In this document: piece after piece, positions 8,027 to 31,445 of the stretch
How positions within the stretch are numbered: the stretch's first letter is position 1
Layout: every line of letters starts with the position of its first letter
DNA from: Escherichia coli
Lineage (GTDB): Bacteria; Pseudomonadota; Gammaproteobacteria; Enterobacterales; Enterobacteriaceae
Assembly: GCF_029227855.1 (NCBI RefSeq)
Contig: NZ_CP074356.1
DNA: 64,000 nucleotides
Strand: one strand, 5' to 3'
Notes under the pieces: generated by a model
Seen by the model: only the letters and a program-made list of their open reading frames with translations
Told to the model about the DNA's origin: nothing
The model's database searches: none
Translations under genes and position numbers: made by a program

Positions 8027-8064
8027 TGTCCGGTTTAAGACAATTTAATAAGAATAAGCTATAA

Positions 8065-8776
8065 TAAATATCCTCCGGCATAGCCGGAGGTTTTTCAAAT
8101 GCGCCTATAAGGCTCTCTTACCAGCCGCGCCCTAACAGGCGCACACGATCTGACATTTGCATCCAACTTCGTTACTTACGGCCCGTAAACGGGCTGCCCG
8201 GATAGGGAATCGATAACTGCTCTCCCATTTTATCCTCTTCAAGCTGGTGCTTTATGTAATCCTGTATCTTCGCCGTGTTCTTACCCACCGTATCGACGTA
8301 GTACCCTCTGCACCAGAACTCCCTGTTCCTGTATTTGAATTTCAAATCACCAAACTGCTCGTAAAGCATCAGACTGCTTTTCCCTTTCAGATATCCCATA
8401 AAGCCGGATACGCTCATTTTGGGCGGGATCTCCACAAGCATATGGATATGATCTGCACAGCATTCAGCTTCCAGAATCCGTACACTTTTCCACTCACACA
8501 GCTTTCTCAAAATACTGCCTATTGCTCTACGCTTCTCTCTGTAGAACACCTGTCTTCGGTATTTTGGCGCAAAAACTATGTGATATTTACAGTTCCATCG
8601 GGTGTGCGCTAAGCTCTTTTCGTTCCCCATTGGGACCCCCTTTTGATTTCTTGTTTGACACTTGCAGTTGCCAGACCGCAAGGTGTTTTAACAAATCAAA
8701 AGGGGTTTTAATAACTGGCTTAAAGCTGAAAGCTTTCCGGAACCCCCAGCCTAGCTGGGGGTTTTCTGTGCACAAA
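8065..8776 (-). mobile_element. IS200 (IS200/IS605 family) copy 1, tnpA oriented on minus strand
   Basis: 712 bp unit repeated in direct tandem; contains Y1 HuH transposase ORF and terminal palindromes TCCTCCGGCatagCCGGAGG (8071-8090) and CCCCCAGCctaGCTGGGGG (8743-8761); boundaries ambiguous by +/-2 bp. Confidence 0.85.
8172..8630 (-). CDS. tnpA: IS200 transposase TnpA (Y1 HuH single-strand transposase), 152 aa from the internal ATG
   Basis: MGNEKSLAHTRWNCKYHIVFAPKYRRQVFY...HIHMLVEIPP (HxH motif) ...IQDYIKHQ (catalytic Tyr); ORF track's longer 169 aa version (8172..8681) starts at an upstream TTG. Confidence 0.88.
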   Translation of the reverse strand: MGNEKSLAHTRWNCKYHIVFAPKYRRQVFYREKRRAIGSILRKLCEWKSVRILEAECCADHIHMLVEIPPKMSVSGFMGYLKGKSSLMLYEQFGDLKFKYRNREFWCRGYYVDTVGKNTAKIQDYIKHQLEEDKMGEQLSIPYPGSPFTGRK

Positions 8777-9488
8777 TAAATATCCTCCGGCATAGCCGGA
8801 GGTTTTTCAAATGCGCCTATAAGGCTCTCTTACCAGCCGCGCCCTAACAGGCGCACACGATCTGACATTTGCATCCAACTTCGTTACTTACGGCCCGTAA
8901 ACGGGCTGCCCGGATAGGGAATCGATAACTGCTCTCCCATTTTATCCTCTTCAAGCTGGTGCTTTATGTAATCCTGTATCTTCGCCGTGTTCTTACCCAC
9001 TGTATCGACGTAGTACCCTCTGCACCAGAACTCCCTGTTCCTGTATTTGAATTTCAAATCACCAAACTGCTCGTAAAGCATCAGACTGCTTTTCCCTTTC
9101 AGATATCCCATAAACCCGGATACGCTCATTTTGGGCGGGATCTCCACAAGCATATGGATATGATCTGCACAGCATTCAGCTTCCAGAATCCGTACGCTTT
9201 TCCACTCACACAGCTTTCTCAAAATACTGCCTATTGCTCTACGCTTCTCTCTGTAGAACACCTGTCTTCGGTATTTTGGCGCAAAAACTATGTGATATTT
9301 ACAGTTCCATCGGGTGTGCGCTAAGCTCTTTTCGTTCCCCATTGGGACCCCCTTTTGATTTCTTGTTTGACACTTGCAGTTGCCAGACCGCAAAGTGTTT
9401 TAACAAATCAAAAGGGGTTTTAATAACTGGCTCAAAGCTGAAAGCTTTCCGGAACCCCCAGCCTAGCTGGGGGTTTTCTGTGCACAAA
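8777..9488 (-). mobile_element. IS200 copy 2, head-to-tail with copy 1
   Basis: Second 712 bp unit, about 99% identical to copy 1 with at least five substitutions (e.g. 8290 vs 9002, 8403 vs 9115, 8474 vs 9186); same terminal palindromes at 8783-8802 and 9455-9473. Confidence 0.85.
8884..9342 (-). CDS. tnpA: IS200 transposase TnpA, copy 2
   Basis: Protein identical to copy 1 TnpA; the nucleotide differences between copies are synonymous or outside the ORF. Confidence 0.88.
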   Translation of the reverse strand: MGNEKSLAHTRWNCKYHIVFAPKYRRQVFYREKRRAIGSILRKLCEWKSVRILEAECCADHIHMLVEIPPKMSVSGFMGYLKGKSSLMLYEQFGDLKFKYRNREFWCRGYYVDTVGKNTAKIQDYIKHQLEEDKMGEQLSIPYPGSPFTGRK

Positions 9489-11755: not shown

Positions 11756-12661
11756 TCAAATGTTGGTGCGTACCAACGGCAAAAGTTCATCCATTTTCTT
11801 TTCCACTGCCAGCTGCCCAGCCGCAATGGCAGCGTGCGCGCGATGGAAATCAAGCGTAGATATTTGCGGGCAAACAGGTTGAATCAGAATATCGGGCGGA
11901 TCACCTGCCATGCGGTTCCTTTTAAGGCGGTTCTCCAGCACCTGGATAGAAGTGGTCATAATCTCTGTTGCCGTTGGCGCTGTCACCGCCCGACGTGTCG
12001 TTATGCTGCCCAACCTTTCTTTCAGACGCGCATGCCACGGCAGAGAATCACCATTCTCGCTATTTTCTTCACTAACATTAAAGGAGAGCAGATCTTGTTG
12101 CATCAAATGAGCATCGTGCTGCAGGTCGACCGCTATCACAATATCAGCACCCAATGCACGCGTGAGCGAAATAGGAATTGGGTTAACTACAGCGCCATCA
12201 ACCAGCCAGTAGCCGTTATGCGCAACGGGTGCCATTAGTCCTGGAATACTGCATGATGCACGAATAGCAAGATGGAGATCGCCTTCAGTAAACCATAATT
12301 CGCGCCCAGTACTTAAATTGGTGGCAACAGCCGCGAAGCGACGGGAACAATTTTCGATCTCTGTTTCCGGCATTATTTCGCGATATTGATTGAAGACACG
12401 CTCGCCGCGCAGTAACCCACCGCGCTGCCAGGAGAGATCCATCAGGCGTAAAACATCCCAATAACTGAAAGAGGTCACCCAATCTTCCAGCGCAGATAGT
12501 CGATCGCATGCATAGGCAGCGCCCACCAGCGAACCAATTGAACATCCTGCAACGATATCAATTTCAATACCCACTTTTTTTAGCGCATTAATAACGCCAA
12601 TATGCGACCAACCTCTCGCCGCGCCAGATCCCAGCGCCAGCCCTATTTTTATCTTTCTCAT
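11756..12661 (-). CDS. rssA: Patatin-like phospholipase RssA
   Basis: 301 aa ORF with GSGAARG oxyanion motif and GCSIG lipase serine motif. Confidence 0.93.
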   Translation of the reverse strand: MRKIKIGLALGSGAARGWSHIGVINALKKVGIEIDIVAGCSIGSLVGAAYACDRLSALEDWVTSFSYWDVLRLMDLSWQRGGLLRGERVFNQYREIMPETEIENCSRRFAAVATNLSTGRELWFTEGDLHLAIRASCSIPGLMAPVAHNGYWLVDGAVVNPIPISLTRALGADIVIAVDLQHDAHLMQQDLLSFNVSEENSENGDSLPWHARLKERLGSITTRRAVTAPTATEIMTTSIQVLENRLKRNRMAGDPPDILIQPVCPQISTLDFHRAHAAIAAGQLAVEKKMDELLPLVRTNI

Positions 12662-12773
12662 TATTCCCGCAAGATTCCCCTGGAATGCAATCGTAGCAAC
12701 ATCGCTACCGCTCGGTTAACATAGTGCTACTCAGGCGGTTAATACGCCGTTATTGTTTCCAGGGAGATTATTT

Positions 12774-13232
12774 GTGTCTCAGCTTTGTCCCTGTGGTAGT
12801 GCTGTCGAGTATAGCCTATGTTGCCACCCTTATGTGTCTGGTGAAAAGGTTGCACCTGATCCAGAACATCTCATGCGTTCGCGTTACTGCGCTTTTGTGA
12901 TGAAAGACGCAGATTATTTAATAAAGACCTGGCATCCATCTTGTGGAGCGGCGGCGTTACGTGCCGAATTGATTGCCGGATTTGCGCATACTGAATGGTT
13001 AGGATTGACCGTATTTGAACATTGTTGGCAGGACGTCGACAATATCGGATTTGTCAGTTTTGTTGCGCGATATACCGAAGGTGGCAAAACAGGTGCAATC
13101 ATTGAACGTTCGCGATTTTTGAAAGAAAACGGTCAATGGTACTATATTGACGGTACACGTCCGCAGTTTGGCCGCAACGATCCCTGCCCTTGTGGTTCAG
13201 GTAAAAAATTTAAAAAGTGCTGCGGCCAATAA
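12774..13232 (+). CDS. ychJ: SEC-C motif protein YchJ
   Basis: GTG start preceded by AGGGAGA; N- and C-terminal CPCGS...C motifs; 152 aa. Confidence 0.88.
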
Positions 13233-13281
13233 TGGTTGACGGTACGGTTTAGCAAACACTCTCAACAAGGTTTTTCCAGCA

Positions 13282-14124
13282 ATGCATTCACTCCAACGTA
13301 AAGTTCTGCGTACTATTTGTCCGGACCAAAAAGGTCTGATCGCACGTATTACCAATATTTGCTACAAGCACGAGTTAAATATCGTACAGAACAATGAATT
13401 TGTTGATCACCGTACCGGGCGCTTTTTTATGCGCACGGAACTGGAAGGGATTTTTAATGATTCCACCCTGCTGGCGGATCTCGATAGCGCATTGCCAGAA
13501 GGCTCCGTGCGTGAGCTGAATCCTGCCGGTCGTCGCCGGATAGTGATTCTGGTCACTAAAGAAGCGCATTGCCTTGGCGATTTGTTGATGAAAGCCAATT
13601 ACGGCGGCCTGGATGTCGAAATCGCGGCAGTTATTGGTAACCACGATACTTTACGTTCTCTGGTTGAGCGTTTTGATATTCCGTTTGAGCTGGTAAGTCA
13701 TGAAGGATTAAGCCGCAACGAGCACGATCAAAAGATGGCGGATGCCATTGATGCTTATCAGCCTGACTACGTGGTGCTGGCGAAGTATATGCGGGTATTA
13801 ACGCCAGAATTTGTGGCACGCTTCCCGAATAAGATCATCAATATTCACCATTCATTCCTGCCAGCGTTTATCGGCGCACGTCCTTATCACCAGGCCTATG
13901 AACGTGGCGTGAAGATTATTGGCGCAACCGCTCACTATGTGAATGACAATCTGGACGAAGGTCCAATCATCATGCAGGACGTTATTCATGTCGATCATAC
14001 CTACACAGCTGAAGATATGATGCGCGCAGGTCGTGACGTCGAGAAAAACGTCTTAAGTCGCGCACTCTACAAAGTACTGGCGCAGCGCGTCTTTGTTTAC
14101 GGTAATCGGACGATTATTCTTTAA
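13282..14124 (+). CDS. purU: Formyltetrahydrofolate deformylase PurU
   Basis: 280 aa ORF with N-terminal ACT domain and formyl-transferase fold; matches PurU. Confidence 0.95.
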   Translation: MHSLQRKVLRTICPDQKGLIARITNICYKHELNIVQNNEFVDHRTGRFFMRTELEGIFNDSTLLADLDSALPEGSVRELNPAGRRRIVILVTKEAHCLGDLLMKANYGGLDVEIAAVIGNHDTLRSLVERFDIPFELVSHEGLSRNEHDQKMADAIDAYQPDYVVLAKYMRVLTPEFVARFPNKIINIHHSFLPAFIGARPYHQAYERGVKIIGATAHYVNDNLDEGPIIMQDVIHVDHTYTAEDMMRAGRDVEKNVLSRALYKVLAQRVFVYGNRTIIL

Positions 14125-14205
14125 TCGCCAGCAAAAATAACTGGTTACCTTTAATCCGTTACGGATGAAAATTACCCAACCAGTTCATTTTTCTCAACGT
14201 AACAC

Positions 14206-14233
14206 TTTACAGCGGCGCGTCATTTGATATGAT
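14206..14233 (+). promoter_or_regulatory. tyrT promoter (-35 TTTACA, -10 TATGAT, GC-rich discriminator)
   Basis: TTTACAGCGGCGCGTCATTTGATATGATGCGCCCCGCTTCCC is the classic stringently controlled tyrT promoter, ~50 bp upstream of the mature tRNA 5' end. Confidence 0.85.
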
Positions 14234-14282
14234 GCGCCCCGCTTCCCGATAAGGGAGCAGGCCAGTAAAAGCATTACCCCGT

Positions 14283-14367
<85 letters not shown>

Positions 14368-14401
14368 TCTCAAGCATTACCTCAAAATTTGAATTACCCC
14401 T

Positions 14402-14486
<85 letters not shown>

Positions 14487-14542
14487 TCACTTTTCAAAAG
14501 TCCGTGAACTCTCAAACGAATCCGCAATTAAATATTCTGCCC

Positions 14543-14629
14543 ATGCGGGGAAGGATGAGAAGCTTCGACCAAGGTGCGACTCGGGCGCCAGCGAGAAAGC
14601 GTTGCCGCAGGCAACGACCCGAAGGGTGA
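14543..14629 (+). CDS. tpr: Protamine-like small protein Tpr encoded in the tyrT operon 3' repeat region
   Basis: Short arginine-rich [31 protein letters not shown] downstream of tyrV, followed by a partial repeat of the tRNA 3' end (TCCTTCCCCCACCACCATCACTT at ~14650). Confidence 0.5.
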
Positions 14630-14751
14630 AGCGCGCAGCGCTGAGTAATCCTTCCCCCACCACCATCACTTCCTGTAAATACTCAAAACCTGTTACTCCG
14701 AGCTAATTCTACCCAATGGCACCGCGTTTACCGGACCTACAATATCCTCCC

Positions 14752-14783
14752 CTGTAGGTCGGATAAGCGAAGCGCATCCGACA
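14752..14783. repeat. REP (repetitive extragenic palindrome) element
   Basis: TGTAGGTCGGATAAGCGAAGCGCATCCGACA resembles the canonical REP consensus. Confidence 0.5.
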
Positions 14784-14803
14784 ACTCACCCCGTACCGTG
14801 CCC

Positions 14804-14828
14804 ATAAAAAAACCCCGCCGAAGCGGGG
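14804..14828 (-). terminator. narGHJI operon rho-independent terminator
   Basis: CCCCGCCG-aa-GCGGGG hairpin followed on the minus strand by a U-run (A-run on plus). Confidence 0.6.
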
Positions 14829-14849
14829 TCTATGCAAACTAAAATTCGC

Positions 14850-15527
14850 TTAGTGACGAGCGCGCACCAGCTGATACTTACGTGTCAGATACTCCACCGG
14901 TACGCTCCAGATGTGCACCAGACGTGAGAACGGGAACAGCAAGAATAACGTCATCCCCAGCACCAGGTGCAGACGGAAGATAAACGCCACACCATCAAGG
15001 TGTTGAGAAGCGCCACCGTGGAAGGTCACTACCGACTGCGCCCAGCCAACCAGTTTCATCATCTCGCTACCGTCCATATGCTGGGCGGAGAACGGAATGG
15101 TCAGCAAGCCCAGAGCGCACTGGATAACCAGCAGAGACAGGATCAGGATATCCGCTCCGGTAGTCGTTGCACGCACGCGTGGGCTGAACAGACGACGTTT
15201 CAGCAACAGCACGCCGCCAATCAGACACAGCACGCCGCTGGCACCACCAGCAAACATCGCCATTTTCTGTTTCACTTCAATCGGCAGCCAGGCTTCATAC
15301 ATCCAGTGCGGCGTCAGCATACCGAAGAAGTGACCGACAAAAATCCCCAGAATACCGATATGGAACAGGTTCGACGCCAGGTTCATCCCTTTGCGATCCA
15401 GCATCTGGCTGGACGCCGCGCGCCAGGTGTACTGCCCGTAGTCATAACGCAGCCAGCTACCAATCAGGAAGACCGCCCCGGTTATGTACGGGTAGATATC
15501 AAAGAAGAACATATTCAGGAATTGCAT
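14850..15527 (-). CDS. narI: Respiratory nitrate reductase gamma (cytochrome b) subunit NarI
   Basis: 225 aa hydrophobic [33 protein letters not shown]. Confidence 0.96.
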
Positions 15528-16237
15528 TAGTGCTGTCCTCCGGTGGTGATATTCAGATATTGCGGCGCGACGGCACCAGCAAAGCGACGCTGATGAGCAG
15601 TGATTGCTGAATCACCGCAGCCTTTGTCAGCAAAGAATTTAACCTGCTCTTCTTCCCAGACAGCATCCAGCGCCTGCGGCGTATCGTCGCGCGCTTCGTC
15701 GGCAATTTTTTCCGCCACTTTGTCGCTGTCGATTGCGGTATTCGCCAGTTTCAGCAGCAGATCAAACAGCACGGCATAACGGCTTTCACGCTGTTGCAGA
15801 CGCGCACTCAGCAATGCCAGAATCGGCGCAATATCTTTCAAACCCTCCACGGCTTCGCTTTGCGGCAGCTGCGCCAGGTACTCCAGATACAGCGGCAGAT
15901 GGTCGGGCAATTCGCGGCTGTTTAACTGCAAACCGTGCTGCTCATACTGCGCCAGCAGGTCTACCATCGCCTGACCGCGGTCGCGGGATTCACCGTGCAC
16001 ATGTTCAAACAGCAACAGTGACGTGGCACGACCACGGTCGAACAGTTCGCTGTACTGGGCCTGAGCATCGAGCGGATCCATCGCCGTTAAATCGCGCAGG
16101 AAAATGCCCAGCGCATGGGCATCTTCTTTCGACAGATTTTTCGACGCAGCAATCGCCTCAAACATCTCTTGTTGATGCTGCCATAAGGCAGCATCCGGAT
16201 ATTCAAGGAGACGCGATACAATCACGAGTTCGATCAT
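15527..16237 (-). CDS. narJ: Nitrate reductase assembly chaperone NarJ
   Basis: 236 aa ORF, overlaps narI start and narH stop; matches NarJ. Confidence 0.95.
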
Positions 16238-17772
16238 GGGTGCGACTCCGTTTTGCTCGTTACGTCGATGGCATCGATACGGCGGCTGTTGAACAGATTG
16301 AATTTGGTATCTGAACCGTGGCAGCCATCACCAAAGGTAAAGCCGCAGCCATTTTTCTCCGGGAAGGCTTCCCGCGCCAGTTCACGATGACTGCTCGGCA
16401 CCACAAAGCGATCTTCGTAGTTAGCAATCGCCAGATAACGGTACATCTCCTGTGCCTGGGCTTCGGTCAGACCGACCTCTTCCAGCGCACGGGTATCGAC
16501 TTTACCGTCAACGGTTTCAGCACGTTTGTAATGACGCATCGCCAGCATACGTTTCAGCGCGCGCAGTACTGGTTTGGTATCACCGGCGGTCAGCAGATTC
16601 GCCAGATACTGTACCGGAATACGCAGACTTTCGACGTCTGGCAGAATGCCGTTGCTGCCCAGTTCACCCGCATCTGCCGCAGACTGAATCGGCGACAGAG
16701 GCGGCACGTACCAGACCATCGGCAGTGTGCGATATTCCGGATGCAGCGGCAGCGCCAGTTTCCATTCCATCGCCATTTTATAAACCGGCGACTGCTGTGC
16801 GGCTTCAATAACGCTCAGCGGAATACCGTCTTTAATTGCCTGCTCGATGACTTTCGGATCGTTCGGATCGAGGAACACCTCCAGCTGACGCTGGTAGAGA
16901 TCTTTCTCGTTCTCGGTGCTGGCTGCACGTTCAATGGCGTCGGCATCGTACAGCAGCACGCCGAGATAACGGATACGACCGACACAGGTTTCAGAGCACA
17001 CCGTCGGCTGACCGGCTTCAATACGCGGATAGCAGAAGATGCACTTCTCAGACTTACCGCTCTTCCAGTTGAAGTAGATTTTTTTGTACGGGCATCCGGT
17101 GATGCACATACGCCAGCCACGGCATTTATCCTGGTCGATCAGGACGATGCCATCTTCTTCACGCTTGTAAATCGCACCGCTCGGGCAGGTCGCCACACAT
17201 GCCGGGTTCAGGCAGTGTTCGCACAGGCGCGGCAAATACATCATGAAGGTGTTTTCGAACTGGCTATACATCGCCTTCTGGATGTTGTCGAAGTTCTTGT
17301 CTTTCGCCAGCTTGTCAAACTCACCGCCCAGGTCATCTTCCCAGTTCGGCCCTTTTTCGATTTTCGCCATCCGTTCGCCGGTAATCAGCGAACGCGGACG
17401 GGCAATCGGCTGCGATTTGCTGCCTTCCGGCGCGGTATGCAGGTTCTGATAATCAAAATCGAACGGCTCGTAATAATCGTCGATACCCGGCAGATGCGGG
17501 TTAGCAAAGATTTTACCCAGCAGCATGGCGCGGTTACCCATGCGCGGCTGCAGTTTGCCGTTGATTTTACGGATCCAGCCGCCTTTGTATTTTTCCTGGT
17601 TTTCCCAGTCAGTCGGGAAGCCCTGGCCCGGCTTGGTTTCCACGTTGTTGAACCACGCGTATTCCACACCTTCGCGGCTGGTCCAGACGTTTTTACAGGT
17701 AACTGAACAGGTGTGGCAGCCGATGCACTTATCGAGATTCAGCACCATGCCGACTTGTGAACGAATTTTCAT
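16234..17772 (-). CDS. narH: Respiratory nitrate reductase beta (Fe-S) subunit NarH
   Basis: 512 aa ORF with multiple CxxCxxCxxxCP ferredoxin-type cysteine clusters. Confidence 0.97.
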   Translation of the reverse strand: MKIRSQVGMVLNLDKCIGCHTCSVTCKNVWTSREGVEYAWFNNVETKPGQGFPTDWENQEKYKGGWIRKINGKLQPRMGNRAMLLGKIFANPHLPGIDDYYEPFDFDYQNLHTAPEGSKSQPIARPRSLITGERMAKIEKGPNWEDDLGGEFDKLAKDKNFDNIQKAMYSQFENTFMMYLPRLCEHCLNPACVATCPSGAIYKREEDGIVLIDQDKCRGWRMCITGCPYKKIYFNWKSGKSEKCIFCYPRIEAGQPTVCSETCVGRIRYLGVLLYDADAIERAASTENEKDLYQRQLEVFLDPNDPKVIEQAIKDGIPLSVIEAAQQSPVYKMAMEWKLALPLHPEYRTLPMVWYVPPLSPIQSAADAGELGSNGILPDVESLRIPVQYLANLLTAGDTKPVLRALKRMLAMRHYKRAETVDGKVDTRALEEVGLTEAQAQEMYRYLAIANYEDRFVVPSSHRELAREAFPEKNGCGFTFGDGCHGSDTKFNLFNSRRIDAIDVTSKTESHP

Positions 17773-30796: not shown

Positions 30797-30862
30797 GAGA
30801 AAACCCCCGCACGTTGAGAGGTAAAACCTGACAACAGAACGGGGGCTAATCTTGAACCATCA
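30797..30862 (-). ncRNA. rdl: Rdl antisense RNA (type I antitoxin), approximate coordinates
   Basis: Minus-strand hairpin-rich segment ending in CGGGGGUUUUCUCUUU terminator, antisense to the ldr 5' leader; position by analogy with known LDR architecture. Confidence 0.45.
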
Positions 30863-30911
30863 ACAATTCAAGAATAGCCGCAAAATGTTGTCATTACAAC
30901 AAGGCGGCTAT

Positions 30912-31332: not shown

Positions 31333-31398
31333 GAGAAAACCCCCGCACGTTGAGAGGTATAACCTGACAACAGAACGGGGGCTAATCTTGAACCAGAA
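31333..31398 (-). ncRNA. rdl: Rdl antisense RNA copy 2, approximate coordinates
   Basis: Same segment as in unit 1, ~535 bp downstream. Confidence 0.45.
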
Positions 31399-31445
31399 CA
31401 ATTCAAAATAGCCGCAAAATGTTGTCATTACAACAAGGCGGCTAT

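Follow-up and report, generated by a model that had tools for sequence, protein, structure and literature searches.

We estimate at about 90% the probability that the tyrosine-tRNA operon in the window, a stretch of 64,000 nucleotides from the Escherichia coli contig NZ_CP074356.1, is an ordinary E. coli tyrT operon in a short and common allelic form, with 2 adjacent tRNA genes followed by a single repeat unit. What was found is a common short allele of a known polymorphic repeat locus, that is, ordinary copy-number variation of a kind already known. A preliminary description of this region had placed 1 repeat after tyrV, against about three 178-bp repeats in strain K-12, and this count was borne out by parsing the locus into modules, by alignment, and by the number of Rfam matches; when aligned with the K-12 region, the 2 operons differ in repeat number. 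The interval delimited in that description, 14487-14700, is confirmed as spanning the single unit and approximately 30 nt of the unique tail.

The operon lies between purU (13282-14124, plus strand) and the convergent narI (14850-15527, minus strand), genes that are 725 bp apart in the window (14125-14849) versus 1,255 bp in K-12. From purU toward narI, the order is promoter, tyrT, a 34-nt spacer, tyrV, 1 RtT unit, and a unique C-rich tail. The tyrT promoter (14206-14233, plus strand; 10 of 12 matches in the promoter scan) comprises the −35 element TTTACA, a 16-nt spacer, and the −10 element TATGAT, followed by a GC-rich discriminator, and its sequence aligns with that upstream of tyrT in K-12 without a difference. 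This promoter is common to tyrT and tyrV (PMC2887954). Both genes, tyrT (14283-14367) and tyrV (14402-14486), were predicted on the plus strand by ARAGORN as tRNA-Tyr(GTA) and are identical to each other; tyrT scored 53.4 bits against the Rfam tRNA model, and the repeat search recovered the pair as a direct repeat of 92 nt with 99% identity and a spacing of 119. The plus-strand spacer between them (14368-14401) equals the last 34 nt of the 209-nt spacer of K-12, as seen in the module parse and in the alignment, where columns 226-400 are a gap in the window. Downstream of tyrV, the module parse identified a single 179-bp unit on the plus strand (14488-14666), which has a 19-nt tRNA 3′-end motif on both sides. 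The unique tail contains a REP-like inverted repeat (14725-14769, without strand assignment), detected in the repeat search and present in the alignment in K-12 too, and is followed by the intrinsic terminator of the convergent narGHJI operon (14810-14831, minus strand; terminator scan).

For the comparison with K-12 MG1655, positions 1285300-1287800 of NC_000913.3 were read on the tRNA strand (in this segment, rttR is annotated at positions 1767-1937 and the 1,255-bp stretch between purU and narI occupies 1228-2482), and both sequences were split at the 19-nt tRNA-Tyr 3′-end motif ATCCTTCCCCCACCACCAT, yielding modules that we denote T (119-bp tRNA), S (175-bp spacer RtT unit), and R (178/179-bp downstream RtT unit). 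K-12 was parsed as T, S(175), T(119), R(178), R(178), R(178), and tail, whereas the window was parsed as T, T(119), R(179), and tail. All spacings between copies of the motif were 119, 175, 178, or 179, and in a four-way alignment the length differences between K-12 and the window consisted only of gaps of 175 bp (S) and 356 bp (2 R modules). Consistent with these results, Rfam matches to RtT numbered 4 in K-12 (1 in the spacer and 3 after tyrV) versus 1 in the window. Thus, the 2 operons share the purU-narI locus, the promoter, identical tRNAs, the 19-nt motif at the module junctions, and the unique tail, but differ in the number of repeats (3.14 in K-12 versus 1.14 in the window), in the spacer (209 nt with a divergent 175-bp RtT-like unit versus 34 nt devoid of it), in the length of the unit (178 bp versus 179 bp, with 1 extra T), and in the tpr frame (29 versus 24 codons). 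The K-12 arrangement is reportedly that of Egan and Landy, who in 1978 are said to have described a 178-bp sequence repeated 3.14 times in the tyrT operon. No second unit is present in the window, where the 120 nt past 14671 align to the unique tail that follows the array in K-12. The R unit of the window is 95.0%, 93.9%, and 93.3% identical to K-12 units 1, 2, and 3, respectively, and 73% identical to the spacer unit.

The same comparison qualifies the proposal, made in the preliminary description, that variation in repeat number changes the 3′ processing context of the tRNA precursor. The surroundings of tyrT and the distal trailer do differ from those in K-12, and the spacer difference (34 versus 209 bp), which lies outside the interval considered there, had been overlooked; by contrast, the 179 nt immediately following tyrV are 95% identical to K-12 unit 1. 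Because this proximal stretch is conserved, an altered context would chiefly concern tyrT, with 34 instead of 209 nt behind it, and the distal trailer.

The repeat itself can be delineated precisely. The stretch 14468-14492 (AATCCTTCCCCCACCACCATCACTT), which holds the 3′ end of tyrV and the first bases of the trailer, recurs exactly once downstream, at 14647-14671 (plus strand) with a spacing of 179 nt, in agreement with the earlier statement that the tRNA 3′ end is repeated once after tyrV. For an exact 25-nt repeat found beside its source within an 800-bp region, chance is excluded. The downstream copy constitutes the “0.14” of the 1.14-repeat array and supplies the tRNA-like 3′ end to RtT. 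The Rfam model of this RNA, RF00391, matched the plus strand at 14534-14665 over its full length (model positions 1-130 of 130) with a score of 127.7 bits versus a gathering threshold of 45 (E = 1e-27), and no other copy of RtT occurs in the 64-kb window. The match begins 48 nt 3′ of tyrV, that is, in the trailer of the tRNA-Tyr operon, its 3′ end repeats that of tRNA-Tyr (…AUCCUUCCCCCACCACCA), and it retains the consensus structure; hence, the score, the placement in the operon, the tRNA-like 3′ end, and the structure all agree with membership in RF00391. The full RNA (14494-14665) is the positional equivalent of K-12 rttR (b4425, 171 nt), and its equivalents in near-identical genomes are annotated as “RtT sRNA” by PGAP. 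As to the 178-bp array, the unit has the characteristic length and end (179 bp, with the 19-nt tRNA 3′ end), but it stands alone, whereas an array proper has at least 2 units in tandem. Likewise, the unit shares with the RtT family its position in the tRNA-Tyr trailer and the tRNA-like CCACCACCA 3′ end, but is present in a single copy, whereas K-12 carries a multi-copy family, and it departs from the consensus structure in 1 broken pair (G14576-A14622) and in 1 pair that is G-U instead of G-C. The rttR RNA has been described as deriving from 1 repeat of the tyrT operon and as possibly taking part in the stringent response (PMC3318445; bioRxiv 10.1101/2024.07.17.603846), the RNA being traced in the first of these sources to Bösl and Kersten 1991 (as cited in PMC3318445).

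To place the window allele among E. coli genomes, we queried complete genomes with the locus. A direct 801-nt query matched 5,425 of 5,426 complete genomes, 1,665 of which aligned with at least 80% of its length at a single site, although query coverage cannot separate repeat numbers because BLAST joins pieces from repeated units. Locus length was taken from the span of the joined match, using queries composed of the 2 flanks only. Two samples were analyzed, both of them spread by rank, neither random nor a full census, and with some classes inflated by clonal and laboratory strains: in the first (1,501 + 1,501 nt flanks; 60 rows at even rank steps through the 5,425 records, of which 48 were joined), the total number of RtT units was 0 in 1 row, 1 in 13, 2 in 8, 3 in 10, 4 in 11, 5 in 3, 6 in 1, and 7 in 1, with 11 rows having the span of the window (3,759-3,761 nt) and 11 that of K-12, and in the second (2,000 + 2,000 nt flanks; 60 rows), there were 11 T-T-R rows, 5 further T-T-R rows in which an IS4-family element had inserted before narI, 12 rows of the K-12 type, and 8 rows that were still split. 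The T-T-R allele of the window is one of the 2 forms seen most often, and K-12 does not represent the norm. The K-12 layout of 3.14 repeats and a 209-bp spacer is accordingly best regarded as one allele among many, and not the most frequent one, and is unsuitable as a reference expectation.

Annotated complete genomes illustrate the range of layouts. Among those with the short spacer, we found T-T in EC476, T-T-R in NY1601, JNE151685, and S88 (the last with an added IS4), T-T-RR in FDAARGOS_1290 and EC581, T-T-RRR in 190693, and T-T followed by 5 R modules in 43905; JNEC-KY178, which has a single tRNA gene, is T-R. Genomes with the S module include E. coli C (T-S-T-R), O157:H7 (T-S-T-RR), KTa005 (T-S-T with 5 R modules), and C10 (T-S-T with 6 R modules). 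Some strains carry foreign DNA at this locus. In B2 strains such as S88 and APEC IMT5155, which are otherwise T-T-R and in which the tpr frame is frameshifted, an IS4-family transposase lies between the single RtT unit and narI. In the ST131 strain 5392, a 7-gene cluster of approximately 7 kb, encoding a fatty-acid desaturase, a sterol desaturase, a PAP2 phosphatase, an F390-synthetase-related protein, an MBL hydrolase, an epimerase, and a KAS III-like protein, extends from 17 nt after tyrV to narI in place of the RtT unit, and the annotation of this locus includes no RtT. The laboratory strain OV2 (NZ_CP195020.1) has K-12-like flanks and a locus 650 bp shorter than that of K-12, a difference equal to S+T+2R; the implied layout, T-R, could be due to either spontaneous collapse or engineered deletion.

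The same modules occur outside E. coli. In a scan with 1 genome per species, the RtT-specific junction TAATCCTTCCCCCACCACCA was found in 105 stretches across Enterobacterales, among them stretches from Escherichia, Citrobacter, Enterobacter, Klebsiella, Raoultella, Serratia, and Yersinia. When 14 of these loci were scanned with Rfam, the matches placed RtT in the tRNA-Tyr operon in all 14 and revealed the layouts T-T-R (Citrobacter amalonaticus and Enterobacter cloacae), T-T-RR (C. sedlakii and C. braakii), T-T-RRR (Superficieibacter electus), T-S-T-R (E. albertii, Escherichia sp. ESNIH1, and E. coli E69), T-S-T-RR (C. youngae and Raoultella sp.), and T-RR (Klebsiella oxytoca and Yersinia pestis). 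Judging from these layouts, both spacer types and a variable number of units are evidently old and widespread, and a single downstream unit is frequent.

Module number changes between very close relatives. Over 3.7 kb (12600-16360 of the window), JNEC-KY178 differs from the window by 1 SNP (G14584 in the window versus A) and by 1 fewer 119-bp tRNA module. The R unit of the window has 1 difference from that of JNEC-KY178, which is also the last unit of 2 longer arrays. The best match over 25 kb among complete E. coli genomes, EC581 (99.2%), has 2 R units, and EC476, which shares with EC581 its origin from pig-faeces sampling in Iwate, Japan, has none. That all length differences correspond to whole modules ending in ATCCTTCCCCCACCACCAT fits unequal homologous recombination, and differences in module number between close relatives are as expected from unequal recombination or slippage between direct repeats of 19 nt to 178 bp. 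Unequal homologous recombination or replication slippage between the repeats would gain or lose whole modules, and such gains and losses would leave strains with 1 or 2 tRNA-Tyr genes and with 0 to 7 RtT units. A doublet-to-singlet change of tRNA-Tyr genes by unequal recombination was reportedly observed by Russell et al. in 1970 in the su3 system. The window and JNEC-KY178 form a natural doublet-to-singlet pair of the same kind, separated by exactly one 119-bp tRNA module, but they represent standing variation between isolates rather than segregants of a transducing phage or laboratory strain.

Conservation of the unit as an RNA was assessed by aligning 121 distinct units with MAFFT and projecting onto them the Rfam structure of the window's unit. 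Canonical pairing reached 94% over the 121 units, a figure that carries the caveat that the 3′ strand of the outer helix is fixed by the search pattern, versus 45-55% after displacement of the 3′ partners by 1-3 columns. Covariation was modest, with compensatory double changes confined to the inner hairpin (14600-14616), and the thermodynamic (MFE) fold of the 172-nt RNA, uninformative when taken by itself, was no more stable than that of shuffled sequence (z = −0.76). In the window, 23 of the 24 consensus pairs are standard. The pair bearing on the reading frame discussed below is that of T14627 with G14567, which is a G-U pair; this is the majority state across units (GT in 68, GC in 45), and the alternative found in K-12, a CGA codon with which the frame extends to 29 codons, is in the minority.

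The short array could, in principle, have been produced by assembly, if at least two 178-bp units, or the 209-bp spacer, had been collapsed from short reads. Tandem 178-bp repeats that are 93-100% identical to one another are a classic target for such collapse, and EC581, the closest relative over 25 kb, has 2 units; moreover, the complete E. coli genomes do not include that of the window (99.2% for the best match over 25 kb), which may hence be a draft. Nevertheless, T-T-R was found in approximately 18% of the sampled complete genomes, the unit of the window is of a clean terminal type free of a chimeric junction, and the complete genome of JNEC-KY178 has exactly 1 R unit, 1 base away from that of the window; since a near-identical complete genome has a single unit too, we consider collapse very unlikely. 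It may also be asked whether the repeated tRNA 3′ ends are att scars left by integrative elements targeting tRNA-Tyr genes, with the units being their decayed remnants. Duplicated tRNA 3′ ends are a hallmark of tRNA-targeting islands; in addition, the ST131 cluster starts 17 nt after tyrV, and an IS4 lies just past the unit in other B2 strains. However, there is no integrase, the units differ from island scars in their tandem arrangement and uniform length, and each corresponds to a conserved structured RNA whose range extends from Escherichia to Yersinia and Serratia and which invariably lies in the tRNA-Tyr operon, which makes an origin from att scars highly improbable.

A further alternative concerns the content of the unit rather than its number, namely, that the plus-strand ORF at 14555-14629 is a functional gene for Tpr, a protamine-like small protein. 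The preliminary description had noted a single Arg-rich Tpr-like ORF after tyrV, and such an ORF is indeed present: as read from the sequence, it starts with ATG at 14555 (a further in-frame ATG lies upstream, at 14543) and consists of 24 codons, including 7 for Arg and 1 for Lys, followed by TGA at 14627-14629, where K-12 has CGA. In favor of a gene, K-12 annotates tpr (b1229, 29 aa), the window retains the start codon and 22 of the 24 leading residues (the substitutions being S8A and E15K) as well as the Arg-rich composition, and the Tpr peptide was reportedly synthesized in vitro by Altman et al. in 1981. Against it, the product in the window is 5 residues shorter than the 29-codon K-12 frame, and the base that creates the stop preserves an RNA pair. 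Across E. coli units, the frame has 5, 9, 22 (frameshifted), 24, or 29 codons. An intact copy is missing from O157:H7, whose units have 5 and 9 codons, from E. coli C and JNE151685, with 9 codons each, and from S88, which has a frameshift, whereas EC476 and the ST131 strain lack any R unit. Most units, in E. coli and other Enterobacterales alike, end this frame after 5 or 9 codons; a set of 116 distinct units from other species includes 63 with a stop in the first 5 codons and only 19 that have an ATG and at least 24 codons, many of them specifying unrelated peptides, so that the frame is not conserved among relatives. NCBIfam searches with the 24-aa and 29-aa peptides returned no family, and in other genomes PGAP calls only “RtT sRNA” at this site, leaving the ORF uncalled. 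With the ORF truncated and its frame unconserved across units, strains, and genera, it is not to be read as a gene; it is probably neither conserved nor functional as such, and we regard the existence of a genuine Tpr protein gene here as improbable. Most likely, the Arg-rich frame is a by-product of the GC-rich helices of RtT rather than a conserved protein. Another ORF annotated in the K-12 repeats is ychS (b1228; putative uncharacterized protein YchS), which is antisense and lies wholly within units 2 and 3 (positions 1410-1685 of the K-12 segment). It cannot exist in single-unit strains such as that of the window and therefore has the look of an annotation artefact; both the tpr and ychS annotations of K-12 look like accidents of repeat sequence.

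For the short tyrT allele, a scheme of expression can be proposed by extension from work on K-12. Transcription from the tyrT promoter would yield a single precursor, both tRNAs would be freed from it by RNase P and 3′ nucleases, and the trailer at approximately 14494-14665 would be released as an RtT RNA of approximately 172 nt, with its tRNA-like 3′ end trimmed like that of a tRNA; Rho would terminate transcription in the C-rich stretch that follows the unit. In K-12, Rho termination is said to occur approximately 225 nt past the tRNA. The plus-strand trailer at 14637-14800 is C-rich and G-poor (C/G of 1.5-5.5), constituting a candidate Rho loading region; the ratio reaches up to 5.5 in 14637-14711, a peak that matches the one at the junction of K-12 units 1 and 2 and recurs at every unit junction of K-12, and the C-rich stretch runs to approximately 14800 in the window. 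Given that the peak is retained and extended in the unique tail, the Rho loading region is plausibly kept, its role being a candidate one predicted from base composition. The terminator scan detected no intrinsic terminator on the plus strand after the unit. The only strong hairpin (14810-14831) serves the convergent nar operon and, when read on the plus strand, presents an A-run followed by the stem, devoid of a T-run.

As for function, RtT reportedly has an effect in relA strains. The absence of RtT from the ST131 strain and EC476 suggests that the unit is dispensable, and the functional effect of the short allele is probably small. We considered whether the array of tRNA-Tyr genes and 0 to 7 RtT units, which varies between near-identical strains, might not be neutral but act as a fast, recombination-driven dosage switch for tRNA-Tyr and/or RtT, tuning translation or the stringent response, with the short T-T-R and the long K-12 forms favored in different niches, but hold this to be unlikely.

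Knowledge of the repeats of the tyrT operon, of the RtT RNA, and of unequal recombination at this locus dates back to the 1970s-1990s, and the RtT units of every genome are already covered by the NCBI annotation pipeline, such that the variant described here is of little biological weight. The length of the purU-narI interval changes quickly and could serve as a marker to tell very close strains apart, with the proviso that short-read assemblies may misreport it. Elsewhere in the window, 2 adjacent copies of IS200 lie between hns and galU (8063-9488), with a period of 712 bp and 5 mismatches between them, each containing a minus-strand transposase ORF of 169 codons and a match to the STnc490 RNA; EC581 has 1 IS200 copy at this site. 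Finally, matches to the rdlD antitoxin RNA of ldr/rdl type I toxin-antitoxin modules were found at 30798-30863 and 31334-31399; such modules near chaA are usual in E. coli.
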